Shown: positions 1 through 14,906 of the stretch, one piece after another | Position numbering within the stretch: position 1 is the first letter of the stretch | How the letters are laid out: each line of letters opens with the position of its first letter | Assembly (NCBI GenBank): GCA_040235515.1 | Contig: JBECKX010000174.1 | Span: 1 to 32,869 of the forward strand | Source: Candidatus Zixiibacteriota bacterium | Lineage (GTDB): Bacteria; Zixibacteria; MSB-5A5; CAIYYT01 | DNA: 32,869 bases | Direction of reading: 5' to 3' | Notes under the pieces: model-generated | Told to the model about the DNA's origin: nothing | The model's database searches: none | The model's input: the letters and a program-made list of their open reading frames with translations, nothing else | Translations under genes and position numbers: made by a program

Positions 1-548
1 GCATTAGTCGGCAGACCGGAAGCAGTGAGAGTAAGCGTTGTACCATCCGGGTCAGATGCTGTAACGACAAAGTTGAGGTTGCTGCCCTCATCGACTGACT
101 GGTCAGCGGTGGCCGTTATGGTTGGAGCCTGGTTGACGTTTATGACAGTAATCTGCACAATCGCGGTGTCGGCCTCGACTCCATCGGAGGCGATGAAGCT
201 GATGTTGTAGATACCCGCTTCGTCGAGACCGGGATCAAACTGAAAACTCCCGGTATTGTCACCGTTATCGGTGAGAGCGGCGTGGGCGGGTTCATTAGCG
301 AGCAATAGTGTCAGGGTATCGCCATCCGCGTCGGTCGCCGAGACATTGATGACCAGCGATTCGCCCTCGGCGATCGAAGTATCGGGGATAGCGTCCCAGA
401 CCGGCGGTGCTGCAACAGCCATTGATGTCAACAGCAGGCTGAAGAGCACGACAAGCTGCAGCGGCAGCTTCGCGCCGAACGGTCGTCGCAAAGCTGCGGG
501 CCTGTTACAGCTCGCCGGTGAAATTGTCTTAGAAACTGTTCTTACCAT
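1..548 (-). CDS. Secreted cadherin-like/Ig-like tandem repeat protein, N-terminal part only (runs off the window's left edge)
   Basis: Not in the ORF track. Hand translation from ATG at 548 is open to position 1: MVRTVSKTISPASCNRPAALRRPFGAKLPLQLVVLFSLLLTSMAVA-APPVWDAIPDTSIAEGESLVINVSATDADGDTLTL...FIASDGVEADTAIVQITVINVNQAPTITATADQSVDEGSNLNFVVTASDPDGTTLTLTASGLPTN. It has a signal peptide ending AVA, cadherin-like 'ATDADGD'/'VNQAP'/'ASDPDG' motifs and a GGAG about 10 nt upstream. Confidence 0.9.
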   Translation of the reverse strand, partial: MVRTVSKTISPASCNRPAALRRPFGAKLPLQLVVLFSLLLTSMAVAAPPVWDAIPDTSIAEGESLVINVSATDADGDTLTLLLANEPAHAALTDNGDNTGSFQFDPGLDEAGIYNISFIASDGVEADTAIVQITVINVNQAPTITATADQSVDEGSNLNFVVTASDPDGTTLTLTASGLPTN

Positions 549-648
549 AACCAAAGTTCTCCACGACTCTTTCGGACCGCGCCGTCGACTCTGCCTTGAG
601 CCGGCTTACAGCGCGGTTGAGGTTCACGCCTGGCCAGTTGCATCCGGC

Positions 649-2952
649 CTACTTCAACAGCACCATTTTGCGGGTTTTCGCCTGATCTCCGATAGTCAGG
701 CGATAGAAATAGACACCCGATGCCGCCGGTGTGCCGTTTTCCATACGGCCGTACCAAGTGTAGGAGTACTCTCCCGGAGCAAGCACATCATCGACCAGCG
801 TGTGCACATGCTGTCCGAGGAGGTTGTAGATCTTCAGGGACGCACGGCGCGCTGAGTTCGCTTCGATAGCGAAGTTGATAGTTGTTTCCGGGTTGAACGG
901 ATTGGGGAAGTTCTGCTGGAGGGTGAAATCCTCCGGCAACACGCCACCCTTGCGCGCGAGGTTCTTCACCTTGACTTCCACAGCATCCGGGTCAACCATC
1001 ACGGCGTAATTGATCTTAAGGTCGTCATTCGTGAGTTCGCCGATTGTATTCTTCTGCGTGCTGAAACTCAGCAGCGTTCCGGTACCGGCCTTCATATAGT
1101 TGTTGAGCCCTGCCGAACCGGGGTAGAGCAGCACGATCATCCTGCCGAGGCCATCATCCTTGTAGCGAAGCGCCAGATTGCTGGAGAGCGCGGTACGCTC
1201 AGGCTGCTGCAGCTGAACCTTCTCCGGGTTGTAGCTGATCTCAAACTGCACGCCCGCGACATCGGTCGGCAATTCGGCGTAGATATCGGTGACTCCCTGA
1301 CTGCCGGCTGCGGAGGGTTCATAGAGCTCGAGCACGGCTTCATCACCACCGAAGTCAACAAATGAGGGCGGTGTGCCGCCGAAGACCTGGTTGATAATCG
1401 CCTGCAGATCGATCACATCCACGAACCCGTTACGGTCCATGTCGGCAGCGCTGAACTGGCGGGCGTTGAGCTCGATATCTTCGATGATATAAGCGACCAC
1501 AACTACCATATCGGCGATATCGACGCGACCGTCACCGTTAACATCACCGCCGGCATCGACGACGAAGATACCGTTATCGTCGGTTTCCAGCTCGACGGAT
1601 GGCACGAAGGGATCGGGGCTGATCGATTCGTAAGCGTTTTCGAATCGGAGTTCGGACTCGCCGATCGGCGCGGAGCCTCTGACTGTCACCCAGAAGTTCA
1701 TGATTTCCGGCGTGGATGTGGTCTGAATCTCTTCGTTATTAAGTCCGAAGGCGACGACGCGCACCCTGCCGGAGATATCCCCGATATTTTCATAGACAGT
1801 GAAATTCTGCAATCGATCGGTCGGTACGAGCGAATCGACAATCAGGACATCTGAATTGTAAACGAAGTCGAACTGAACACCGAACACAGAGGATTCTGAA
1901 CTGAGGTTCACAGGAATACTGATGCCGGTTAGACCGGGAGTACCTCCCGAGACTGGCCCGATGCCGCGCTGCGAGACCGTGTAGATGACATCGCCCTCCG
2001 GTGGCGGCTGCTGGGTTACGGTGATATTGACCGAGCGCGGAGTCGCCGAGGCAGAGGAATCGTCCACGCAGGTAAAGGTGATCGAGTATGAATTGATCTG
2101 TGAAGCGTTGGGGGTCCAGCTGAAATTGCCGGTTACCGCTCCCGCTCCGGTGACACTGCCGCCCGAACCGAATGTCGCTCCCGAAGGTAGCCCGGAAGCA
2201 GAGAGAGTGATTGTCTGACCAGCATTCGGGTCGCTTGCGGAAACTGAGAAGTTGATTGGTGTACCGGGGGTGACGGCATAACTGGTTTGCGAGAGAGCGG
2301 CAATCGACGGCGGGGAATTGGTACCACCCGTCTGGCCTTCTCCCACTGTCAGAACACCGGAGACGATTCTTGGATAGACTGTCCGTAAGCCGAGATGATC
2401 GGAGTAGGAACAGCCACGGAAATCACCGGGGTCGTCATCGAACGGATTATAAATGCGAATTACGGTTTGATCGCCGATATTGAGGTTGTCCTTGATTCGC
2501 ACATAGAATTGCAGGACATTCCCTCGACCCTTCCTGATCCATAACTGGTCTCCCGGACTATCGCCTCCATCTCCGGCGCCGATGACACTCGCCCGTTTAC
2601 CGTTCGAGGTTGCCATTACAAGTGGCTGGAAGTTGAAAACGCACTGGCCCGCCGGCACACCCTCGAAGGCACGATCGATCGAGTCGACGTTCACGAAGAA
2701 CGTCCCCTGGTCGACGACACCGACGTACTCGACCTTGGTCGTATCGATGTCGAAGTACGCATTGATCGCCATCAAGGTGGTATCCGGATTGACCACGAAC
2801 AGCTTGATCGGTACGATATCGCCCGGCTGTCCGAATGCCGGCATTACCTTAAAGGTATCAGCCTCTGATATTAGCTGGCTATAGGCTTGCTTCTGGGGAA
2901 CCAGAGCCGCCACCACCGCTAATAACAATATTGGGATCAGTTTTCTGAGCAT
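649..2952 (-). CDS. Secreted cohesin / cadherin-like / cohesin / dockerin / cohesin-like protein with T9SS type-A (FlgD-Ig) C-terminal domain, about 767 aa
   Basis: The start MLRKLIP at 2952 has a GAGG RBS and a signal peptide. Cohesin-like motifs are GQPGDIVPIKLFV, VFGVQFDFVYNSDVL and VAGVQFEISYNPEKV. Ig repeat: NSPP...ASDPNAG. Dockerin pair: GDVNGDGRVDIAD / ADMDRNGFVDVID. CTD: LQQNFPNPFNPET...SGVYFYRL...RKMVLLK. Confidence 0.88.
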   Translation of the reverse strand: MLRKLIPILLLAVVAALVPQKQAYSQLISEADTFKVMPAFGQPGDIVPIKLFVVNPDTTLMAINAYFDIDTTKVEYVGVVDQGTFFVNVDSIDRAFEGVPAGQCVFNFQPLVMATSNGKRASVIGAGDGGDSPGDQLWIRKGRGNVLQFYVRIKDNLNIGDQTVIRIYNPFDDDPGDFRGCSYSDHLGLRTVYPRIVSGVLTVGEGQTGGTNSPPSIAALSQTSYAVTPGTPINFSVSASDPNAGQTITLSASGLPSGATFGSGGSVTGAGAVTGNFSWTPNASQINSYSITFTCVDDSSASATPRSVNITVTQQPPPEGDVIYTVSQRGIGPVSGGTPGLTGISIPVNLSSESSVFGVQFDFVYNSDVLIVDSLVPTDRLQNFTVYENIGDISGRVRVVAFGLNNEEIQTTSTPEIMNFWVTVRGSAPIGESELRFENAYESISPDPFVPSVELETDDNGIFVVDAGGDVNGDGRVDIADMVVVVAYIIEDIELNARQFSAADMDRNGFVDVIDLQAIINQVFGGTPPSFVDFGGDEAVLELYEPSAAGSQGVTDIYAELPTDVAGVQFEISYNPEKVQLQQPERTALSSNLALRYKDDGLGRMIVLLYPGSAGLNNYMKAGTGTLLSFSTQKNTIGELTNDDLKINYAVMVDPDAVEVKVKNLARKGGVLPEDFTLQQNFPNPFNPETTINFAIEANSARRASLKIYNLLGQHVHTLVDDVLAPGEYSYTWYGRMENGTPAASGVYFYRLTIGDQAKTRKMVLLK

Positions 2953-3116
2953 ATTGCTACCTCTTCTCTGAGTCAGACAGTTCACTTTATCGAATCCGCA
3001 CGGCGAGGGTACACCCTGCGGGAAAAATCGGTTTTGGCGCGGCGGTTTTGGCCGCTATTCAAAAATGCTTTGCAACTAATCGCTCAAAAAATAGCAGTAA
3101 ACGCGAGACGTTCTCC

Positions 3117-5576
3117 CTACTTGAGCAAGATCATTTTCCGTGTTGCCTCGAACGCGTCGGTTCGAAGACGGTAGAAGTAAATTCCGGACGGTAGTTCCTG
3201 GTCGAAATGGTTCCGACCGTTAAATATAACTTGATGCCTGCCCGCCGGAAGCACTTTATCGACTAATGTCGAGATTTTTTCTCCGAGTATGTTATAGACC
3301 TCCAGGGTCGCTGCAGCAGCGCCCGGAAGCTCAAATGAGATCGTAGTTTCGGGATTAAACGGATTGGGGTAATTCTGTTCGAGCTGGAATGATTCCGGCA
3401 GAATTCCCTTCTCCAGGCTCTGCGGGTAAATCAGCTCGCCGCGTTCGTCCACGAATTCCGCGGAGATAAGTTTTGAGTGTTCTGATGCAGTGATCGTGAG
3501 CAACTCTTCGGCCTGCCTGGCAATCGCCATATCACCGCGGCGCGAGTAGAGAAGGACCCCCGCGATATCACCCTCGCGAGCCGAGATCAACTCGAAGCTA
3601 GTTCCGTCTCCGGTCAGGGCGACGTCGAACTCGCTGCCGGCGTCAACGGAAAACTGGAACAGGGCTGCGGCAAACGCGGCATCCTCGCGGAAGCTGAGCG
3701 TGAATCGATCCCGCAGTTCTTCCCAGAGGTACTCGGCAGATGGTTTCAGTCCTGAGGTGGCGATTTTACCCGATCCGCCGCTGACGATTTGAATCATCTG
3801 GATCAGGTCGGCCAACTCCGCCGGTGTACCATTCTGATTGATGTCGCTGTTTTGCCAGCGAGCGCCGTCGAGCGGATACTCGAACGGATTTACGAAGTAG
3901 TTGGTGAAGTAGACGAGATCGGCGATTTCGAACGCAACGGCGTTGAGATTGATATCACCAACCAGTCCATCATATTTCTTGATCAGCACGCCACCTGTCG
4001 TGTACTCGATCGCCGAGCGCGGAATCAGCGTACCATCCGGCTCCCAACCGGCGTTCTCGGTCTGATCCTGCGGATCGAGGAACACGTACTCGAGGCGAGT
4101 ATGGAATCCGGCAAAGCTGGTGTTGGAGGAGATCAGGAAGCGAAGGTGCACCACCGGCCCTTCCCCCTCATCGAGATAACGGGTTGCCGGATTAGCGTTG
4201 TCGGCATCCGCGGTCACGAAGATCTTGCCATCGGAGGAGAGGGTATAGTTAAAGATCTGCCACTGGTCGAGACGTGTCCCGACGGTGTCGACCTTGTTGA
4301 GTGTCAGAATCGATTTATCGTATTCGATTTTCACATTGAAAGCAGCCACCGGCACGCGGTTGTGCATGGAGACGTAAACATCAACATACTCCGCCGGGAA
4401 GCCCTGCTCTTCGCCAATCGAGAGTTCGATCGGGGCTGAGGGCATCATCTGGAGCGTATGGAATTCCGTTGTACTGCCACCGAATTCATCGACGGCAGAG
4501 ATGGAGAAGTTGTAGTCGCCCGAGTCCTCGATCGCCGAGTTCCAGCGAATGAAACCGGGATTGGCGTCATTGATTTCGACCGCCGCCGGGAGACCATCGA
4601 CGATGAAATGAATCGCGTCGAAGTCAGGATCGTTGCCGGTCAAGGGAATCAACAACTCATCACCGGCGGAACCGGTAAGGGCCGAACCAATGGTGAAGCT
4701 GGGCGATCTATTGACGTTGACGACGTGGACCGGCACCGTCATGTGCGTGGCGACTTTGCCGTCGAAGGCGACGATATTGAGATCGTACGGTGATTGCGTG
4801 GCAGAGCCCGGTCCCACGTATGGCACCTTCCAGATGAAGGTGCTCTGGTTGCGCGAAGTATTTTCGAATACCGATCCGGGAGTCAGATTGGTGGCGAAGA
4901 CATCGAGATCGTCGTTGTCAGGATCGCTGGTTTCGATTGACAGGGTGACGGTTTCTCCCTCCATGACAGTGAGGGGTGCGATCGGTTTGATTTGTGGAGC
5001 GCGATTGGTGGCATCGATCGAGATTACACCGGCCACCACGACCGGCACGATGTTTTCGCTCTGTGGAGTGTTCAACTCCAGCGGACCGCCCGGCTTGGCT
5101 TTGATTTCACCGGCGGCACCATCGTTCAGTCCCGAATTGGCGGTGATGTGCAGGGTCGCGATGACTCCGGAGCCAGCCGGCAAAGCGGGTGAGCCGAGGG
5201 CCACACCATTTATCGTGATCGTTTTGGTAGCTTCATTGAGTGAGTAGTTGAGTAACGTCCAGTTCTTGGCTCGCGAATCGGCAAAGCTGACAGAATCGAC
5301 TGAGATCAACTCGTCAGGATAGGTAAGTGTAATCGTGAGCCCCGCCAGCGCTTCGTCGTTGAAGAGATGGATATCTACGTCACCTGAAGCATTGGGGCGG
5401 ATGGTCACGTCGGCAATGCTCACGGTGTCGATTTCGCCGAAGGGATCTGATTGCGCCCGGACTGGCGCCGGCAGCAACAGGAGTGAGACGACGGCGAGTA
5501 TCGGAGCGGCCAACCGGAGCCAGCCTGAGTAGATAGAGTGGTTTTGCCGGAGTTTCTGGAGTAGCCCGTTTAACAT
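3117..5576 (-). CDS. Secreted cohesin / 2x cadherin-like / cohesin / dockerin protein with T9SS type-A C-terminal domain, about 819 aa
   Basis: ATG at 5576 follows GGGGG; the signal peptide ends VRA. Cohesin-like segments are LAGLTITLTYPDELISVDSV and VAAFNVKIEYDKSIL. Ig repeats: NRAP..SDPDND and NRSP..NDPDFD. Dockerin: GDINLNAVAFEIADLVYF / SDINQNGTPAELADL. CTD: QNYPNPFNPET...RKMILLK. Confidence 0.88.
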   Translation of the reverse strand: MLNGLLQKLRQNHSIYSGWLRLAAPILAVVSLLLLPAPVRAQSDPFGEIDTVSIADVTIRPNASGDVDIHLFNDEALAGLTITLTYPDELISVDSVSFADSRAKNWTLLNYSLNEATKTITINGVALGSPALPAGSGVIATLHITANSGLNDGAAGEIKAKPGGPLELNTPQSENIVPVVVAGVISIDATNRAPQIKPIAPLTVMEGETVTLSIETSDPDNDDLDVFATNLTPGSVFENTSRNQSTFIWKVPYVGPGSATQSPYDLNIVAFDGKVATHMTVPVHVVNVNRSPSFTIGSALTGSAGDELLIPLTGNDPDFDAIHFIVDGLPAAVEINDANPGFIRWNSAIEDSGDYNFSISAVDEFGGSTTEFHTLQMMPSAPIELSIGEEQGFPAEYVDVYVSMHNRVPVAAFNVKIEYDKSILTLNKVDTVGTRLDQWQIFNYTLSSDGKIFVTADADNANPATRYLDEGEGPVVHLRFLISSNTSFAGFHTRLEYVFLDPQDQTENAGWEPDGTLIPRSAIEYTTGGVLIKKYDGLVGDINLNAVAFEIADLVYFTNYFVNPFEYPLDGARWQNSDINQNGTPAELADLIQMIQIVSGGSGKIATSGLKPSAEYLWEELRDRFTLSFREDAAFAAALFQFSVDAGSEFDVALTGDGTSFELISAREGDIAGVLLYSRRGDMAIARQAEELLTITASEHSKLISAEFVDERGELIYPQSLEKGILPESFQLEQNYPNPFNPETTISFELPGAAAATLEVYNILGEKISTLVDKVLPAGRHQVIFNGRNHFDQELPSGIYFYRLRTDAFEATRKMILLK

Positions 5577-5702
5577 ATTTCCCCCGAAGTACTTTTCAGG
5601 CAAGCGGATAGCTTGTTGAGCGGCACCATGTCAGGAGTAGTTTCGGCAGCGTGAGGGCTGCAGATATGGCTGTAACTGTCACACTTCATCACCATCAGTG
5701 GG

Positions 5703-5719
5703 TGCAACATATATGCCAA
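5703..5719 (-). promoter_or_regulatory. sigma54 (-24/-12) promoter upstream of the 819-aa gene
   Basis: The minus strand reads TTGGCATATATGTTGCA, with the exact GG-N10-GC spacing of the TGGCAC-N5-TTGC consensus, about 125 nt upstream of the start codon. Confidence 0.7.
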
Positions 5720-5792
5720 GAGGCGAGGAGTGGCGGGATCGTGTCCCTTTGGACAGTAATCTGATCTGTACATGGTGCTCGGTATATAAAGT

Positions 5793-5808
5793 GTTGCATT
5801 GTAGCAAC
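5793..5808. promoter_or_regulatory. Palindrome, candidate enhancer-binding-protein site
   Basis: GTTGC-ATTGTA-GCAAC lies about 80 bp upstream of the sigma54 element. A second dyad, TGCA-ATAGCT-TGCA, is at 5911-5924. Confidence 0.4.
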
Positions 5809-6011
5809 TTATTTTGGGACGCCTGCTGCCGTGTGCTTTCGGTCGGAAGGCAACCGGAATTCCCTCTCTCCTAAGTGTGGTACTGGTTTGCACAGGCTCT
5901 GAAAAATCCCTGCAATAGCTTGCAACTTCCCTATTACGGGGAGCTACAAAATTCTTTCGAGTAGCTTTTCTTACTTCTGTTTCAAACGGTTTCGACAAAA
6001 CGGCCTACAAA

Positions 6012-6180
6012 TAAAAAAATGGCTCAGCCCACGAACTTCGCATTGCGTGATGCTTGCCATAGCAGGTGAATCAATCCGGTTGGACAAAGCGTCAGTCATT
6101 TGATTCAAGTTCGCGGCCGTTAGATGTCTATGTCTTCACTCACCTCCTCCAGTTACACCGAGCAGCGTTGCGGCTGCTTT
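6012..6180 (-). ncRNA. Candidate structured RNA of unknown family
   Basis: Nested stems: 6029-6038/6107-6116 and 6068-6074/6100-6106. Small hairpins lie at 6051-6064, 6039-6047 and 6161-6178. It ends in a U7 tract on the minus strand. Confidence 0.45.
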
Positions 6181-6183
6181 GAT

Positions 6184-6215
6184 AAAATCTGGGGAGAGGA
6201 TTATCTCTCCCCAGA
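6184..6215 (-). terminator. Rho-independent terminator or processing hairpin after the 877-aa gene
   Basis: Perfect 11-bp stem TCTGGGGAGAG-N6-CTCTCCCCAGA, followed by TTTT on the minus strand, 25 nt after the stop codon. Confidence 0.8.
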
Positions 6216-6240
6216 CATCTATCAGACAATTCTGACGAAA

Positions 6241-8874
6241 TTACTTCATCAGGACCATCTTCTTGGTCTGCGTCCAGTCAGCCACGGTAGCCTTGTAGAA
6301 GTAGATACCGGAAGCGACGTTGGAAGCATCCCATTCAACGTTGACGGTACCTACGCCGTTACCGGAGAAGCTCTCGACGAGCTGGCCAGCGACGTTGTAG
6401 ATAGCGAGTGACCAATCAGAGGCGGTCGGCAGATCGAGACCGATCTTGGTGGTCGGGTTGAACGGGTTCGGGACGTTCTGATGCAGCGCGAACGAGGTCG
6501 GCAGCACGCTCTTTGAGACCTGGGTGTTCAGCATGTTACCGCTGTAGTCGGCAACTTCGACACTCACAAGCTCAACGTCACCGTTGATCGTGAACAGGTC
6601 GGCGGCGCCGGCTTCGATCGAGTTGGTCATGTTGCTGGTACCGGCATAAACCAGGACCTTCAACTGGCCATCGTTCTCAGCGCTGACAACTTCCATGTCA
6701 GTCTTGCTGACAAGGTCGTAGGCACCGTTGACTTCAAACGTAGCGTACACAGCACCGAGTTCAACCGATGCGTTGGTCGACAGGGTACCGTTGGCAAGCG
6801 TCACGTTAGCCGTGTTGGCAAACGGAGCAAGCTTCGGGAACGGAAGAGCATCACCCACGATGATACGAAGCTGGTAGACCAGGTCACCGACGGTAAGCGG
6901 AGTACCATCCGCGTTAACATCGGAAGCCGCGATCTGAGCTTCGCGGAACTGCGGGTTCGGATCGAGGGCGCTGAGACCATACAGGAAGTAGTTCGTGTAG
7001 AGTACGGCGTCCGCGATTTCGTTGTCGATACCGTTGAGGTTGATATCACCACGGCCGTCAATTGAGTCGGCGCAGATAATGTCAACACCACCGTTCCAGA
7101 AGATGATGAAACGAACCGGCTCATACTTATCGCTGACATCGCAGTCGGCGCAAGCACCACCGAAGCTCATTGCGAAGTAGCAGGAGAGGTCGGTGATTTC
7201 ATAATCCGGGACGTTGATCGGATCGGTGTTCTCGAAGTCGAAGACCTGAGAGCTGATCCAAAGGGTGTCACCACCGATGTTCGAGATGCTGTTGTCGCCG
7301 CAATCGATCCAGCAGAAGCGGATCGGCAGGTACTGGCACTCGTACGTACGGTCGTTAGTGACATAGAACTTCAGGCTGGCGAGTTCGCCACCATCCGGGA
7401 CATTGAAGCCGGCCGGATGATTGGCACCGTTGTTCTGATCGGCAATCGCGACCACGCGGAGCTTTCCGCTCGGGCACGGGCCAACGCAGTTACCAAAGGC
7501 ACCATAACGATAGGTGAAGTACTCCCATCCAAGACCGGCAGGACCGATAGCGGCGCCCGGCTCGGCCGAGATGAAGCTAAGACCAGAAGCATCGTAACCG
7601 ACGAGGAAGTCAAAACCGCCCATTTCGCCAGAACCCTGGACCTTGGTGATTGAGACATACTCGTAGTGACCCTGGAAGGTACCATGGGTCTTCTCGATCT
7701 TGATCACGAACGGCTGGGTGTTCAGAACTAAGATATCGAAGGTACATGAAGCAACGCCACCGCAAGGATCGGTCACGGAAACGGTGAAGCTCTTGGTCAG
7801 ACCGCCTTCGGAGTTATCCGAAAGCCAGGCGAAGTTACCAGTGCCATCGACTGTCGGAGCATTGACGACGGCATCGTTGGCCACGACTGACCAAACGAGA
7901 GCATCGCACGGATCCGCATCGGTAGCATTGAAGTCAACACCAACGGAGTTACCCTTACCAACTGACTTCGAAGCGATGCAGTTAGTAATGGTCGGGTTGT
8001 TGTTGGTCCAGTTGATCGTGAAGTCATGCTGGGCAGAGCTGCCGCAGTTGTTGGTCACGGTCACGCTGACGTCGGTTGAACCGCAGGTCGAAATCGGATT
8101 GACCGTAAGTTCGCCGGTGGCAGCGTTGATGGTACCAGCTGAGCTGGAGAAGCTGATCGGTGAACCGTTCGGATCGACCGGATCGGCATTGAAGTCAAAG
8201 CTGTAGGTCAAGCAGTGGCTGCGGTTGACGCTTGCACCAGGATCGCTGGTGAAGGCCGGGGCAACGCACGGACGAAGAATGACATCAAAGCAAACGGCCG
8301 GGGCATCCGGATTAAGCACGCCGGAGTTCGGCTGACCCTGGTAGGTCGGAACTTCGGTGCCACCGGTCTGCGGGTTCATCGACCAGTCGGCCTGACCGAC
8401 TGCATCGTTGTCGATGCAGAAGCCATTGGGGGTATCCACATTGGCATTGTCAGCATCGAACTGCATTGAATACAGCAGGGTTGAGGTCGCCTGGGCCGGC
8501 AGCGGAGCGCTGAGAGCGGCACCACCCCAGTTAATGGCGTTCGGCATAAGGGAACCGTCGGAGAGTGTACCACCGAGGTCGAAGGCACCAACGGCGCCAC
8601 CGTGTCTCAGGATGTAGACACCGCCGGTACCGCCGGCATCGCCATAACCGTTATCCCAAGTGTAAGTTCCACCAGCTGTCCAGCTGAAAACAAAACCGAC
8701 GGCCATACCGGTGAGCGGAGCATCGGTCTGGAAATAGTACCCAACCATATTGGTCTCGCCAATATAAGCTACAGAGTCAGGGCCGTTGACTTTGACGCTA
8801 ACGTCATAGCCAGCAAATGCGCTGACGCTCAGAAGAAGCATAAACGAAGTAACTAAGATTAGACAGCGTTTCAT
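6241..8874 (-). CDS. Secreted Cys-rich cohesin / Ig / cohesin / dockerin protein with T9SS type-A C-terminal domain, 877 aa; probable major surface protein
   Basis: AGGAG RBS and a signal peptide ending AFA. Ig repeats include NNNPTI..ATDADP. Cohesin: MGGFDFLVGYDASGLSF. Dockerin: RGDINLNGIDNEIADAV / SDVNADGTPLTVGDLV. CTD: QNVPNPFNPTT...SGIYFYK...KKMVLMK. Confidence 0.9.
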   Translation of the reverse strand: MKRCLILVTSFMLLLSVSAFAGYDVSVKVNGPDSVAYIGETNMVGYYFQTDAPLTGMAVGFVFSWTAGGTYTWDNGYGDAGGTGGVYILRHGGAVGAFDLGGTLSDGSLMPNAINWGGAALSAPLPAQATSTLLYSMQFDADNANVDTPNGFCIDNDAVGQADWSMNPQTGGTEVPTYQGQPNSGVLNPDAPAVCFDVILRPCVAPAFTSDPGASVNRSHCLTYSFDFNADPVDPNGSPISFSSSAGTINAATGELTVNPISTCGSTDVSVTVTNNCGSSAQHDFTINWTNNNPTITNCIASKSVGKGNSVGVDFNATDADPCDALVWSVVANDAVVNAPTVDGTGNFAWLSDNSEGGLTKSFTVSVTDPCGGVASCTFDILVLNTQPFVIKIEKTHGTFQGHYEYVSITKVQGSGEMGGFDFLVGYDASGLSFISAEPGAAIGPAGLGWEYFTYRYGAFGNCVGPCPSGKLRVVAIADQNNGANHPAGFNVPDGGELASLKFYVTNDRTYECQYLPIRFCWIDCGDNSISNIGGDTLWISSQVFDFENTDPINVPDYEITDLSCYFAMSFGGACADCDVSDKYEPVRFIIFWNGGVDIICADSIDGRGDINLNGIDNEIADAVLYTNYFLYGLSALDPNPQFREAQIAASDVNADGTPLTVGDLVYQLRIIVGDALPFPKLAPFANTANVTLANGTLSTNASVELGAVYATFEVNGAYDLVSKTDMEVVSAENDGQLKVLVYAGTSNMTNSIEAGAADLFTINGDVELVSVEVADYSGNMLNTQVSKSVLPTSFALHQNVPNPFNPTTKIGLDLPTASDWSLAIYNVAGQLVESFSGNGVGTVNVEWDASNVASGIYFYKATVADWTQTKKMVLMK

Positions 8875-9214
8875 TCTTTAGCTCCTAAACTAGTTGCTGG
8901 AAAAAGATTTGGTATCAGTTAACACTCACTTGATACCTCGTGCCCCCTATTAACTGATTCTACAAGTTTCCCGACTCATTGCGGGATTCTTCAAAACCAG
9001 ATTGAGCCTCAGGAGACTAAGCACACAATGGCATTATCTGCAAAAGGACTCGTGGTGGTTGAACGTTTAAGCCTCTTCTCCTAAACTCCTTCTCACCTCC
9101 TTTCACTCTTTCATTACTCTTCACAGTCATATTGAGTCAGAATTTTCATTTTTTCTATTATCTCAGTCTTAGGCTACGGTTAGATCGTCATTAGACCGAG
9201 CGACCCCCGCGAGC

Positions 9215-10240
9215 TCAGCAGCTCGACGGAGGGGGCGGTCCGCCACCAAAGATAAAGTTAATCAGATACACAGCATCGCCGATACTGATTGCGCCACTGC
9301 CGTCGGCATCACCGTTCGACAGCGGATTCGGCGGAGGTCCACCGCCAAAGATGTAGTTAATGATGAAGACAGCATCGCCGATCGACCAGGCGCCGCTGCC
9401 GTCGGCATCACCGCAAAGGCCGCAGCTCCAGGTTATCCGACCGTCGGTATAGAGAATCTTGGAAGAATCGTAGTTGCATTCGAAGACGGGCAGATAGGTT
9501 GTATCGAACCAGTTGATACACTGCGTGACGTAGGTTGTGTCCTCCCAGTTCACGCATTCACCCATTACCGAGTCGACGCAATTCTCAAACGTGGTGTCGA
9601 TTACGATGAATTCGGCACAGTTCGAGAAAAGAGTATCGTAGGAAAGCGGCAGACAGGTGTAACCGATCAGATTGTTATAGGGATCGGAGAATCTGGTTTC
9701 GATGTCGTTGATATAGATAGTTTCGTCGAGATCGAGACTGTCGATGCAGAGCGAGTCGCCGAGGTTGGGCTGAACTTCAAGAATCAGCTTGACCAGCGGC
9801 TTGACACCGGACTGCGGAGCGATTGGTGGAGTGGCGATGGGCGGAAAGCCATCGTCGTACGTTGCGGCGAGACTGAACAGTCCTCGATTCGCCCCATCGC
9901 GGATACGCGCGCTCACTGATTCGAAACCGCTCAGCAGGGTACCGGAAGTATCGAACTTCGGATACCAGGTCGTATCAACGACCGTATCGAGAGCGAATTT
10001 AACGAATTCCGGATCAGAGATATTGAACCAGAGCGTGACACCCGCAATTGAGTCTGAGAAGTTCTCTACCATAACATTCAAGACGAACTCTCCCGGCGAC
10101 GTTCCGATCGAGACAGAATCTATCTGGCAGACGATCTCCAACGCGTCGGGCGCGGACTCAGCCGGTTCCCCCGTGAAGACTATCGCGATCGGCAGCATAA
10201 AAATGACTGCGAACACGATGAAGCGCCAAACCTTGGCCAT
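9215..10240 (-). CDS. Secreted cohesin-like / Cys-rich / C-terminal dockerin protein, 341 aa
   Basis: AAGGAGG RBS and an N-terminal hydrophobic segment. Cohesin-like: VLNVMVENFSDSIAGVTLWF...PLVKLILEV. The C-terminus carries a duplicated GDADGSGxxSIGDAVxxINxIFGGGP flanked by Cys. Confidence 0.88.
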   Translation of the reverse strand: MAKVWRFIVFAVIFMLPIAIVFTGEPAESAPDALEIVCQIDSVSIGTSPGEFVLNVMVENFSDSIAGVTLWFNISDPEFVKFALDTVVDTTWYPKFDTSGTLLSGFESVSARIRDGANRGLFSLAATYDDGFPPIATPPIAPQSGVKPLVKLILEVQPNLGDSLCIDSLDLDETIYINDIETRFSDPYNNLIGYTCLPLSYDTLFSNCAEFIVIDTTFENCVDSVMGECVNWEDTTYVTQCINWFDTTYLPVFECNYDSSKILYTDGRITWSCGLCGDADGSGAWSIGDAVFIINYIFGGGPPPNPLSNGDADGSGAISIGDAVYLINFIFGGGPPPPSSC

Positions 10241-10600: not shown

Positions 10601-10629
10601 AATATATCGGGAACCCGGCAGGTTGTCAA
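10601..10629 (-). promoter_or_regulatory. sigma70-type promoter facing the cohesin/dockerin cluster
   Basis: TTGACA-17nt-TATATT on the minus strand. Confidence 0.7.
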
Positions 10630-11074: not shown

Positions 11075-11956
11075 ATGAGTGTAGTTAGAGAAGAGACAAC
11101 AGAACAGGACCTGCTGCAAAAAATATCGCAGTCGATTGGCGAGCTACCCCCTTCACCAGCCGTAGTGACCAAGGTGATGGGCCTGACGTCAGATCTTAAC
11201 TCCAATGTGGAGGATCTGGGGGAAGTCCTTGCTGCGGATGCCGCACTGACCGCCAAAGTGCTGCGCCTGTCTAATTCCTCGTTCTACGGCCGGTCGCGGA
11301 CAGTCAGTTCGCTTAAGGAGGCGATACTGATCCTGGGCTTTTTCACTCTCCGTTCTCTGGTGATGGCGTCGACGACGCATTCCCTTTACCGGAGCAAGGA
11401 GAATCCAGACGACGGGAAACAGTTGTGGGAGCATTCGCTGGCTTCCGCGCTGGGCGCCCGGTTGGTGGCCACCCGCATCGGTCACGCACAGGTGGAGGAG
11501 GTTTTCATAGCGGGGCTGCTGCACGACATCGGCAAATTGATCCTGCGGCAACGGCTCGGTACGCTTCTCGATGAGCTGGCGGACGAATCGAAGTCGCAGT
11601 CGCTGCCCTATCTGGAGCTGGAGCAGCGGCGGCTGGGTTTCACGCACGCCGACCTGGGTGCGGCGGTTCTCGACCGCTGGAGCTTGCCGCCCGACCTGGT
11701 CGAAGCGGTGCGGATGCATCACATCAACACGTTTGATGCAGAATGCGGAGAGGATGTGCCGATCTACGCCATCGTCAATTTCGGGAACGAGCTGGCGAAG
11801 ACAATTGGTGTCGGTTCGGGCGAACCGGAACAGATCGACCTGGCGCGCTTCCAACTGGCGGGGCTCTATGGATTCGGCGCCGACGAGTTGCGAAACATTG
11901 CGGCAGACCTGGAAGAGCATTTCGCCGAAGAAAAACGGCTTTACGAAGAAAACTAA
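11075..11956 (+). CDS. HDOD domain protein
   Basis: Hallmark HDOD motifs: LPPSP, D-ALTAKVLRLSNSSFYG, AILILG, WEHS, AGLLHDIGK, GFTHA, W-LP...HH. Confidence 0.93.
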   Translation: MSVVREETTEQDLLQKISQSIGELPPSPAVVTKVMGLTSDLNSNVEDLGEVLAADAALTAKVLRLSNSSFYGRSRTVSSLKEAILILGFFTLRSLVMASTTHSLYRSKENPDDGKQLWEHSLASALGARLVATRIGHAQVEEVFIAGLLHDIGKLILRQRLGTLLDELADESKSQSLPYLELEQRRLGFTHADLGAAVLDRWSLPPDLVEAVRMHHINTFDAECGEDVPIYAIVNFGNELAKTIGVGSGEPEQIDLARFQLAGLYGFGADELRNIAADLEEHFAEEKRLYEEN

Positions 11957-11992
11957 GCGAAAAGAACCAAGCGAAGAGAACCAAGCGAAAAG
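11944..11992 (+). repeat. Tandem repeat, about 3.5 copies of a 14-bp unit
   Basis: AACTAAGCGAAAAG / AACCAAGCGAAGAG / AACCAAGCGAAAAG at 11951-11992, plus a partial unit before it. The array overlaps the stop codon. Confidence 0.85.
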
Positions 11993-12060
11993 CACAGCCG
12001 GCGAGCCGAGAACCGCAGGCTGTCTGACAACCAGCTTGCAGAGCGAACACGAGGTGCCGA

Positions 12061-13575
12061 TTGCCACTGATTGGACGACATGAGACACTGAAGCGAATCA
12101 ACGCCTTTGAAGCGCTCCCCTCCGTACCGCAGATAATAGTACGGGTACGGGAGATATCGGAAGACCCGCAGTCCTCGGTCGCCGATCTGGCGAACATTAT
12201 CCTGTCGGATCATGCCCTGACGGCGCGCATACTGAAGATTGCCAATTCGGCCTTCTACGCTGAATTCGCCAACAAGGTTTCGACCGTTACGCAGGCGATT
12301 ACGCTGATGGGCTTTCGGACGGTACAGAATGTAATTATTTCGCTGGCGCTGTTCGACTCGATGCAGCACTCCGCACAGCATCACAAATTCGATTTCCGGC
12401 AATTCTGGACCAGGTCGCTCTCGACCGGGGTAATCGCCAAGATGCTGGCGAGCGCCGCGAAGTACAAGATTCCCGAGGAGGCGTTTATCGCCGGATTCAT
12501 GCACGACATCGGGATCGCTGTGCTGGCGATGATTTTTCCGGAAGAGTACGACGTCGTGCTGAAGCGGATCGAGCGTGGAGAGGAGTATCTTTCCGCGGAG
12601 AAGTCGATCTTTGGGATTGACCACACCGAGGTGGGGGGATGGTTGGCGCGGAAGTGGAATCTGCCGCCGCTGCTGCTTCGCCCGGTGACGGATCACCACC
12701 GACAGAGGATCCCTCCCCGCCAGAAGAGCAACAATCCGATCGTGGATATTGTCTACCTGTCGGAACTGACATACGATGCGATTTACTCACGGCGGGAGGA
12801 CGCCACCGAGGAGCTTGAACGTTCGTGTCGCGATCTGACCGGGATCGAGCCTGATGTGATCGCGAAGATCGTGGAGGCCGCGCCCGATCTGATCCGGGAA
12901 ATTGCCGGCGAACTGGATATTGCGTTGAAGGCGCCTGACGGACGCGAGCCGTCACCGGTGAAAGCCGCGCTCGATCGGGAGGCGATGGAGGTTGTGCAGC
13001 GGCTCAACGCGCGCAATCGTGAGATGGCGATTCTGCATGAGACGAGCGACGCAATCAGGCAGGCGACGAACGAGGATGAACTACTGCAGACGACGCTGGA
13101 AGAAGTGTTTCGGGGAATGGGCTTAGGCCGGGCTTTGTTACTGCAGATCGATGATGACGCCAAGGTTGCGCGCGGCATACTGGGGTTCGGTGTGAACTCA
13201 CAGCAGGCGGTCTATGAAATGGTCTTCCCTTTAGCCGATGGGGTAATCGGCCGCACCGCGACCGAGCGGGAGGTGCAGAATATCCTCGATGCCACTGCAG
13301 AGCTTTACAGCGATATGCTTACCAAGGAAGAGAAGGACCATATCGGCAGCTGCGCCTTTGCGACTCTGCCGATGGAAGTGGATGGTCGGGTGGAGTTCAT
13401 AATGGTGCTGAATAATCCTGACCCGAGCGATCCGATCGATGATGAGCGCCTGCGTTCAATCGCGAGTATTGTCTCGCAAGCTTCATTGGGAGTGGAGAAG
13501 GTCCGGCTCCGCAAACAGCTCGCCGAACTTCGTGGCGGCGAGGTGGACGGACTGGTCAACACGGCGATGAAATAG
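12061..13575 (+). CDS. HDOD domain protein with C-terminal GAF-like domain
   Basis: TTG start after GAGG. HDOD motifs: LPSVP, ALTARILKIANSAFY, AGFMHDIG, GIDHTEVG. A coiled coil and a GAF-like region follow (GVIGRTA, FATLPM). Confidence 0.88.
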   Translation: MPLIGRHETLKRINAFEALPSVPQIIVRVREISEDPQSSVADLANIILSDHALTARILKIANSAFYAEFANKVSTVTQAITLMGFRTVQNVIISLALFDSMQHSAQHHKFDFRQFWTRSLSTGVIAKMLASAAKYKIPEEAFIAGFMHDIGIAVLAMIFPEEYDVVLKRIERGEEYLSAEKSIFGIDHTEVGGWLARKWNLPPLLLRPVTDHHRQRIPPRQKSNNPIVDIVYLSELTYDAIYSRREDATEELERSCRDLTGIEPDVIAKIVEAAPDLIREIAGELDIALKAPDGREPSPVKAALDREAMEVVQRLNARNREMAILHETSDAIRQATNEDELLQTTLEEVFRGMGLGRALLLQIDDDAKVARGILGFGVNSQQAVYEMVFPLADGVIGRTATEREVQNILDATAELYSDMLTKEEKDHIGSCAFATLPMEVDGRVEFIMVLNNPDPSDPIDDERLRSIASIVSQASLGVEKVRLRKQLAELRGGEVDGLVNTAMK

Positions 13576-14209: not shown

Positions 14210-14752
14210 TTAGCAACCGCCCGGAGCCGGCCCACCACCGAAGATGAAGTTGATGATATAGACGGCGTCGCCGATCGAGATGGAGCCGGAGCCGTCGGCA
14301 TCACCGAGGCACGCCGGACTGGGGCTTGGCCCTCCACCAAAGATGTAGTTGATGATGAACACGGCATCACCGATCGAGATGGCGCCGGAACCGTCAGCAT
14401 CACCACAATTGCACGATCCGGCGGCAGCGAAATTCTGCCAGAAGCCTTGTTCGAGATTGTAGCTGGCGGAGGATCCACCTCCGACGGCGGCCTGGCCGAC
14501 AGTGCCCTTGAGGCTATAGCTTGCAGATGATCCATCCGTAGCACCGTTTCCGATGACCTGCCATTTGATTTGCTCACCGGCCCGTTTCTCGGCTTTGTCG
14601 GGAGCGCCGGCATTCTGACTGCCTCCAGCTTTCTCGCTATTAGAAGATTCTTTAGCCGACTGGCCATCCTTCGCGCCGGCAGAAACCGCGCCACAAAGGA
14701 AGAGCGCGATAGCTAAGGTAAGAAACAGCCGCTTGGAAACAGAGATGTTCAT
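14210..14752 (-). CDS. Small secreted protein with C-terminal dockerin, about 180 aa
   Basis: ATG at 14752 follows GGAG. It has a signal peptide, a low-complexity linker, a short 'WQVI..G...YSL.GTVGQ...YNL.QGFW' module and a Cys-flanked dockerin repeat pair. Confidence 0.88.
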   Translation of the reverse strand: MNISVSKRLFLTLAIALFLCGAVSAGAKDGQSAKESSNSEKAGGSQNAGAPDKAEKRAGEQIKWQVIGNGATDGSSASYSLKGTVGQAAVGGGSSASYNLEQGFWQNFAAAGSCNCGDADGSGAISIGDAVFIINYIFGGGPSPSPACLGDADGSGSISIGDAVYIINFIFGGGPAPGGC

Positions 14753-14906
14753 TTGCCCGCTCCGTGGAAGGTAGATTAAGTTGACCCGTAATAGCCATTG
14801 TAGTAGCCGCAAGATAGGGACAATCGCCGTTTTCGCAAGCCAAATCTAATTATGGCTGCGGAACGGACTTCGGGCCGGGAGCCCCCCCAGGCTCTGTGCG
14901 GAGCGA

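Follow-up and report, generated by a model that had tools for sequence, protein, structure and literature searches.

What would a diderm bacterium assemble from a row of secreted proteins that carry cohesin-like and dockerin-like modules and no recognisable enzyme? The question is raised by positions 1 to 10,240 of a 32,869-nucleotide stretch of DNA (the window, which is the entire contig C24, JBECKX010000174.1) from a Candidatus Zixiibacteriota bacterium (GCA_040235515.1), whose genome comprises 3.59 Mb in 218 contigs. A reading made from the sequence alone had proposed that the five genes found there encode an enzyme-free, self-assembling surface scaffold exported by a secretion system of type IX (T9SS). 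Our preferred answer, given somewhat better than even confidence, is that the operon codes for the central part of a scaffold of cohesins and dockerins at the outer surface of Zixibacteria cells, which probably holds tagged proteins and may also link to itself. The genes, in reading order E-D-C-B-A, are indeed co-oriented: their open reading frames (ORFs) lie on the minus strand at 3-554, 649-2985, 3117-5603, 6241-8874 and 9215-10240. All five score positive for a signal peptide, with a crude heuristic that also fires on 197 of 400 control ORFs and is weak taken alone. Their domains are listed here (aa, amino acids; Ig, immunoglobulin-like; CTD, C-terminal domain; X, the cohesin-like domain that follows the internal dockerin).

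3..554, minus strand: gene A, 5' fragment open at the contig end; signal peptide and cadherin-like/Big_9 repeats (Pfam Big_9, Cadherin_4/5).
649..2952, minus strand: gene B, 767 aa, ATG at 2952 (ORF to GTG at 2985); signal, cohesin, Ig, cohesin, dockerin, cohesin-like X, CTD.
2341..2874, minus strand: B N-terminal cohesin, aa 27-204; fold match 5nrk_A.
1552..1998, minus strand: B inner cohesin, aa 319-467; fold match 6kgc_A.
1372..1551, minus strand: B internal dockerin, aa 468-527; PF00404 at 40.8 bits, fold match 2ccl_B.
949..1350, minus strand: B X domain, cohesin-like, after the dockerin; hhalign 90-95% to the B and C inner cohesins.
3117..5603, minus strand: gene C, 828 aa, probable start ATG at 5576; signal, cohesin, two Ig, cohesin, internal dockerin, X, CTD.
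5016-5450, minus strand: C first cohesin (Pfam Cohesin).
3969-4442, minus strand: C inner cohesin (Pfam Cohesin).
3762-3959, minus strand: C internal dockerin, by similarity to the D dockerin.
6241..8874, minus strand: gene D, 877 aa, probable major subunit; signal, variable cohesin-like N-domain, two Ig, cohesin-dockerin-X cassette, CTD.
8272..8811, minus strand: D N-domain, variable, cohesin-like; hhalign 96% to the C first cohesin.
6499..7716, minus strand: D cassette (cohesin 7063-7716, internal dockerin 6847-7050, X 6505-6825).
9215..10240, minus strand: gene E, 341 aa; signal, cohesin-like domain with a Cys-rich insert (9425-10147), C-terminal tag dockerin (9218-9415).

Are these modules what they seem to be? 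The Pfam Cohesin profile is above its curated cut-off in B (40.3 bits, three stretches) and C (40.9 bits, two stretches), below it in D (18.2 bits), and has no match in E. The Pfam Dockerin profile (PF00404) is above cut-off in B (40.8 bits) and E (24.4 bits), weak in D (13.3 bits) and without a match in C, whose dockerin is similar to that of D (E 6.6e-7). TIGR04183, the profile of T9SS-type tails, is above cut-off in B, C and D (35-38 bits; 37.7 in C). We obtained AlphaFold models of B (35 sequences, pLDDT 83.9) and D (107 sequences, pLDDT 88.4), C and E being without models, and searched them against 48,161 solved chains. Solved cohesins, which are nine-stranded jelly-roll sandwiches, were matched by residues 25-206 of B (5nrk_A, Z 16.9, root-mean-square deviation [rmsd] 2.5 A over 142 residues), 319-467 of B (6kgc_A, Z 17.9, rmsd 1.8 A over 135 residues) and 385-602 of D (5nrk_A, Z 16.2), with rmsd of 1.8-2.5 A across the two proteins. 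Solved dockerins were matched by residues 466-527 of B (2ccl_B, Z 12.0, rmsd 1.4 A) and 607-680 of D (4fl4_A, Z 10.8). The tails of both match the CTDs of PorU/PorZ and mirolase (Z 9-11; D 795-876 with mirolase, Z 10.1). Foldseek on the whole B model returned only multi-Ig chains (TM 0.1).

The remaining domains are cohesin-like by profile-profile comparison only, and none is separately listed in the whole-model fold searches: the D N-domain (hhalign 96% to the first cohesin of C), the E N-domain (98% to the inner cohesin of C) and the X domains (B X against the B and C inner cohesins, 90-95%; C and D X against B X, 91-94%). The D N-domain also has an Atlas lead of 0.89, within an overall range of 0.89-0.90, to a cluster with 16% PF00963. 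The duplicated Ca2+-loop-helix motif and fold of type I dockerins were recognised by profile in B and E, by fold in B and D, and by similarity in C. By profile and predicted structure, B, C and D carry real cohesin and dockerin folds and not unrelated beta-sandwiches, in the layout of cohesins, Ig domains, dockerin and T9SS-type CTD first read from the letters. The two simpler descriptions, a cohesin-like domain plus dockerin in E and cadherin repeats at the start of A, also stood (PF00404, hhalign, Pfam).

Catalytic domains were sought in the five genes with profile scans and in the AlphaFold models, and were rejected: no catalytic family of Pfam or NCBIfam, and no carbohydrate-binding module (CBM), appears for A-E at E<=1, and the rows for M36, M6 and PorU lie far below cut-off and span only Ig or CTD parts. 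B, C and D are non-catalytic proteins with two to three cohesin-like domains each, as scaffoldins are. They also combine a Sec signal with a type-A CTD, as type-A cargo of the T9SS does.

The genes for the anticipated T9SS routing are present. SprA (474.9 bits), PorU (601.9 bits) and seven PorV-family matches are all above cut-off, and the genome has a PorZ-like propeller with a tail; the profiles TIGR03513, TIGR03517 and TIGR03523 (GldL/M/N) gave no match, but their controls were also silent. One PorV-family gene (G000:C82:2721-5768), cut by the contig end, directly follows porU and has an insertion of ~750 residues between model positions 40 and 44. Others (G000:C17, C75, C171, C183, C48 and C74) adjoin large tail-bearing genes, two of them with long C-terminal extensions.

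If the cluster encodes a scaffold, what could dock on it? PF00404 has 93 matches in the genome, and profiles built here recognise 110 dockerin ORFs, most of them with the dockerin at the C-terminus. The main class consists of C-terminal, nearly symmetric tags with one consensus, of which 59 of 92 are flanked by cysteines on both sides. A second class comprises 11 divergent internal dockerins resembling those of C and D, and the B dockerin is a third variant; helix 1 of the internal dockerin resembles that of the tag. We scanned for families in the 105 dockerin ORFs outside the window (at least 100 aa). Peptidases are above cut-off in 22 of them (seven S8, four M43, three M1, two M14, and one each of M4, M12B, M23, M28, trypsin and C39), alongside lipase, peptidyl-arginine deiminase, beta-helices, propellers and TSP3 repeats. 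No glycoside hydrolase (GH) or CBM is among the families listed for these ORFs at E<=1e-4, nor in the cluster genes. Since 42 of the 105 have no family besides the dockerin, unrecognised enzymes are possible. The idea of an enzyme-free assembly therefore survives in part: the cluster itself is free of enzymes, and the whole system is not. The label "cellulosome" was rejected: B, C and D are scaffoldin-like, but no GH or CBM was recognised. The pool of tagged proteins is, as far as the genome predicts, the cargo foreseen for the spare cohesins.

Potential sockets are scarcer. PF00963 has five matches in the genome, and profiles built here find 35 cohesin-like domains in 26 ORFs. Of 13 inner-type cohesins, 12 have a dockerin after them. 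An N-type cohesin is combined with a tail in five proteins that lack a dockerin and must therefore find their partner in a different protein; the N-terminal cohesins of the cluster fall in the same profile class as these single-cohesin anchors. One could argue from the imbalance of five PF00963 matches against 93 dockerins, and from the fact that a shared fold alone shows no function, that the modules keep their folds and do not pair, the cohesin-like sandwiches being adhesion domains or spacers and the dockerins Ca2+-binding stabilisers. With ~35 cohesin-like domains by the more sensitive profiles, conserved binding-face and recognition residues, and cassette and dockerins absent together in two families of relatives (see below), we regard this as highly implausible.

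Some members of the dockerin inventory stand out. A secreted protein (L080:15139-16494; G000:C10:15140-16495) that combines a C-terminal tag dockerin with five CxxCH motifs is a cytochrome c that may dock on the surface scaffold. Two dockerin proteins of ~1,100 aa without a Pfam family (L139:1-3321, G000:C197; L124:1-3165, G000:C44) take ranks 2 and 6 among 2,201 genes in codon bias and are probably major cargo; an orthologue of the C44 protein sits in the distal part of the operon in relatives. At L078:1-4589 (G000:C16), three tandem proteins of ~520 aa have a cohesin, an internal dockerin, an X-like stretch and a tag dockerin that replaces the tail, and are adaptor-like versions of the cassette.

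How might the tagged proteins be retained at the surface? Dockerin and tail-like domain occur together in only eight ORFs, six of which are cassette proteins. We compared 54 genomes. All 41 with at least 20 dockerin matches have 28-60 tails, and 11 of the 13 with at most 16 dockerin matches have from 68 to at least 150 tails, although the tail-rich, dockerin-poor genomes belong to four families and are not independent; the two exceptions are G039, which is 52% complete, and G037, to which we return. The relation is a switch and not a gradient. One enzyme shows the same exchange: an M14 carboxypeptidase carries a C-terminal dockerin here and in one relative (G011), and all 12 of its matches from four dockerin-poor genomes carry a tail at that end; the best two of the 12 are 43-45% identical to it and of similar length. 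The dockerin tag appears to take the place of the T9SS tail.

This exchange can also be taken to mean that cohesin-plus-tail proteins are export carriers, which bind tagged cargo in the periplasm and take it through the T9SS, so that display results from co-export. Tag and tail alternate at the same position of orthologous enzymes, tagged proteins lack a tail of their own, and small cohesin-plus-tail proteins exist, all of which speaks for such carriers. We consider it very improbable even so. We know of no example of a non-covalent complex passing through SprA, and a second secretin locus (C157), with GspE/GspF-like genes and pseudopilins all below curated cut-offs, could export the tagged cargo instead. 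Lipoprotein or Tat (twin-arginine) export finds little trace among 97 ORFs, with one lipobox-like and no Tat motif by a crude heuristic.

Is the cluster a conserved unit? B is present in 28 of 40 relatives, nearly always as a single match. Relatives keep the gene order: all five genes occur in order in 15 of 25 of them, contig ends truncate the cluster in five more, and in the other five C is missing or replaced or a gene has been added. The cadherin-repeat gene comes after B in all 24 relatives in which that side is visible. Gene A here covers only the first ~180 residues of such a protein; in five relatives the orthologues are 3,082-5,422 aa long, one of them with 42 Big_9 stretches and without T9SS tail or dockerin, and G097 has a frame of 7,588 aa. 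The C-terminal part of the giant A in one relative (L055:230-14002, G007) consists of an FN3-like domain and a duplicated domain of ~85 residues, kept in six relatives, and carries neither tail nor dockerin. The C-terminal domain of the relatives' giant A was not found in this assembly, in which the giant genes are unassembled. Where visible, the genes after A in relatives encode first a second repeat protein, of ~2,240 aa and with a dockerin at its end, then a dockerin protein of 1,019 aa, a dockerin-bearing S8 peptidase, and a single cohesin with a tail; in the present genome, orthologues of the last three are on contigs C44 and C210.

The cassette of D is widespread: 1,653 representative proteins match it at E<=0.001, and 142 of the phylum's 151 genomes have a match; taxon-named homologues of B and D are mostly labelled Zixibacteria, and the phylum was assigned here on that basis. 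The domains of D are conserved to different degrees. The N-domain of D is 28-41% identical within the family, and in genera g1 and g3 the inner cohesin is 77-81%, the dockerin 76-88% and X 63-73% identical. The internal dockerin of B is 83-90% identical in g3 and g1 relatives, and in B and C no other domain is as conserved, while in D it is one of the best conserved. The D cassette and the dockerin expansion are jointly missing in the same six of 40 relatives (families f2 and f3). The stricter prediction that genomes without the D cassette have no dockerins held for f2 and f3 and failed for G121, G150, G109 and G117, of which the last two retain C- or B-like genes. B-type genes are also retained in genomes with only 5-10 dockerins, and this retention in dockerin-poor lineages favours a structural role beyond cargo display. 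Many D homologues (P0093-P0212) lie on contigs barely longer than the gene (~2.7-3.5 kb), like assembled single-gene transcripts. A dedicated search for related loci returned two loci only.

Which protein would make up the bulk of such a structure? Among 2,201 genes ordered by how ribosomal-like their codon use is, D comes 11th (z 2.8), with B, C and E at about 280-330; for reference, GroEL ranks 4, EF-G 90 and DnaK 948. Codon bias is an indirect proxy for abundance, by which D is probably a major structural subunit. D also has a hairpin of its own, which is probably a terminator or an mRNA-stabilising stem and is absent from the terminator-scan list; hairpins after E, C and B are no better than shuffles (z -0.7, 0.8 and -1.6).

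6170..6240, minus strand: hairpin directly 3' of the D stop; -30.5 kcal/mol, z -5.5, 0 of 200 shuffles.

The codon bias, the hairpin and a variable distal domain on a conserved base make D resemble a major surface-layer protein. Together with the link to giant cadherin-repeat genes, and with an operon that is kept in dockerin-poor lineages and missing in the dockerin-bearing genus g76, they would suit a purely structural, enzyme-free S-layer or sheath, which mainly roots the giant adhesins while tagged enzymes dock elsewhere. This possibility seems to us improbable, given that the N-terminal cohesins share their class with the single-cohesin anchors, that E bears a cargo-type tag, and that cassette and dockerin expansion are absent together in 6 of 40 relatives.

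Do the subunits bind one another? We analysed 305 cassette sequences (effective number 254) by mean-field coevolution, which recovers plausible pairs within domains. A patch couples the first loop of the cohesin with the linker helix of the dockerin (H403-E645, z 9.2), and suggests a rigid packing in cis, away from the binding faces. The presumed cohesin face is coupled with the recognition residues of dockerin helix 1 (p=0.001 against entropy-matched positions), and this coupling is replicated in two tree-split halves (p=0.0125 and 0.0025). The face of X is coupled with helix 3 (0 of 1,000 in the whole set). By cohesin topology, the coupled face residues presumably lie at the end far from the attachment of the dockerin, which points to a contact between molecules. 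A cohesin-dockerin contact between molecules is thus probable on these grounds, and lends modest support to self-assembly.

The same data can be arranged without a polymer. B, C and D would then be separate T9SS anchors, with the internal dockerin locked in cis by X as a stalk and the other two cohesins free for cargo, as in clostridial anchoring scaffoldins. The couplings G707-V662, A708-V666 and M781-T661 (p<0.001 in the whole set) and a linker of ~12 residues allow the cis complex, anchoring by PorU removes the need for self-assembly, and the likeness of the internal dockerin's helix 1 to the tag means that a shared recognition code could explain the coupling of the cohesin. It is the coupling of the inner cohesin with helix 1, however, that is replicated in both halves; B-type genes are kept where few dockerins exist to be displayed; and in B and C conservation peaks at the internal dockerin, which in D is among the best conserved domains. 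We rate this arrangement as unlikely, yet as one to be taken seriously. A bolder proposal, which we put forward tentatively and with comparably low confidence, would be a new kind of surface layer: T9SS-anchored subunits would polymerise by way of a two-faced internal dockerin (helix 1 to one cohesin, helix 3 to another), the distal cohesins would serve for general docking and possibly co-export, and the tag would stand in for the T9SS tail as surface-targeting signal of ~100 proteins, peptidases, cytochromes and giant adhesins among them.

Several observations weigh against the self-linking, cargo-holding scaffold. The coevolution signal is small (mean z 0.24), and its single pairs, at z 3-5, fall where noise is common. 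C. thermocellum numbering was the source of the residue sets, which were picked after the top-400 list had been inspected, and over half of the signal remains when the helix set is slid by one. A recognition code shared within each genome, or phylogeny, could yield coupling without a polymer, and the coupling between the X face and helix 3 holds in only one of the two halves. Dockerins and tails show no graded relation (Spearman -0.25, p=0.43 over 12 families, G039 dropped), and G037 has few of both. The scaffold leaves unexplained how tail-less cargo crosses the outer membrane. Finally, genus g76 (G150, a single contig, and G121) has 22-27 dockerins and, with these queries, no match to B, to the D cassette, or to C beyond an Ig stretch, so that the tags are not strictly dependent on the operon; operon loss or replacement is possible there.

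With these reservations, the scaffold could work as follows. B, C and D would cross the inner membrane by Sec, be exported by the T9SS through their type-A tails and be anchored by the PorU sortase, as in Bacteroidota, the machinery genes being present. D, judged by its codon bias, would be the abundant subunit. The coevolution patterns suggest that the inner cohesin packs against the back of its own dockerin and that its binding face takes helix 1 of a neighbour's dockerin, so that the conserved cohesin-dockerin-X cassettes would connect the scaffold molecules. The variable N-terminal cohesins and the single-cohesin-plus-tail anchors would provide the predicted sockets for ~100 tag-dockerin proteins. 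The docked set would include peptidases, a single multiheme cytochrome and adhesin-like proteins built of propellers or repeats; in relatives it would extend to the second of the giant cadherin-repeat proteins. In such lineages the T9SS tail would give way to the tag as surface-retention signal.

E is probably an adaptor in this scaffold. It has 11 D-[ST]-[AILVMT] motifs against 1.7 expected (at most 7 in 300 shuffles), with 8-12 in four orthologues and no enrichment in B, C and D. PMC8550257 names this as an O-glycosylation motif, and E may be a heavily glycosylated adaptor. Two further features lie beyond E, outside 1..10240.

10601..10629, minus strand: sigma-70-like promoter match upstream of E; 11 of 12 consensus positions, the best of 11 sites in the region, by consensus match only.
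14210..14812, minus strand: 200-aa secreted protein with a C-terminal tag dockerin, an example of cargo; PF00404 at 31.4 bits.

The dockerin of the latter protein is 79% identical to that of E. Between them, at 11075-13575 of the window, two HDOD-like genes (family by sequence reading only) are divergent from E, and the same pair stands beside E in 10 relatives. Rfam has no match anywhere in the window.

What would follow if the scaffold reading is right? An uncultured phylum would spend ~100 genes per genome on a cellulosome-style display at the outer membrane, aimed at proteins and surfaces and not at cellulose. The self-linking cohesin-dockerin-cohesin cassette would be a new mode of building a surface layer, and protein engineering would gain a large supply of docking pairs, so far unannotated. 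Its building blocks are soluble domains of small size, accessible to in vitro work that needs no culture. The swap of tag and tail raises the question of the route and surface retention of tail-less proteins in an organism with a T9SS. We found no paper on dockerins or cohesins, cellulosomes or type IX secretion in Zixibacteria, in a search that went partly by title and left subscription papers mostly outside; the terms "T9SS" and "Gram-negative" are absent from PMC11557425.

How does the system compare with known ones? The cellulosomes of clostridia and ruminococci (CipA, OlpA and SdbA of C. thermocellum; ScaA-C of A. cellulolyticus) share with it cohesin and dockerin folds of a type I-like kind. 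In both, many enzymes end in one near-symmetric dockerin, scaffolds bear dockerins of a second, divergent class, and single-cohesin anchors and adaptors occur. Unlike the cellulosomes, the present system has no cellulases or CBM3, a T9SS tail instead of an SLH or sortase motif, a diderm envelope, and a scaffold dockerin placed internally between two cohesin folds, with two to three cohesins per subunit. We know of no cohesin-dockerin assembly in the S-layer of Tannerella forsythia (TfsA/TfsB). That S-layer resembles the proposed structure as an abundant, T9SS-dependent surface layer (PMC4175972); its lattice has been shown, whereas here a lattice is a prediction.

One of the closest likenesses is the cellulosome-like complex proposed in silico for Ca. 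Stygibacter (Cloacimonadota), a diderm of a candidate phylum with a non-catalytic cohesin protein bearing a T9SS-type CTD, and with dockerin-bearing S8 and C25 peptidases (PMC8542988). It has one scaffoldin of 3,755 aa with tandem cohesins and CBM2/3, and a few cargo proteins, including GH18 and GH57 (PMC8542988). Here, by contrast, there are several subunits of 770-880 aa with an internal cohesin-dockerin-cohesin cassette, no CBM was detected, and ~100 tagged proteins include no recognised GH; the operon is phylum-wide and has giant cadherin-repeat partners. The "planctosome" of freshwater Nemodlikiaceae is likewise non-cellulosomal and is proposed to display M12B and M14 peptidases through anchors and adaptors; its proposed anchor is a lamin-tail domain and its cohesins are single, and the accessible text describes neither a T9SS tail nor a repeated cassette (PMC6461901). 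ANME archaea have many dockerin-tagged non-cellulolytic proteins and proteins with one dockerin and several cohesins; their envelope is archaeal, their commonest named cargo is ABC substrate-binding proteins, and there is no T9SS in the accessible account (PMC9012536). The supplements of PMC8542988 and PMC9012536 could list related architectures. By analogy with these systems, the operon would encode a docking scaffold that works like those of the cellulosome type, moved to a T9SS-bearing outer membrane, and of which similar systems have already been proposed in silico elsewhere.

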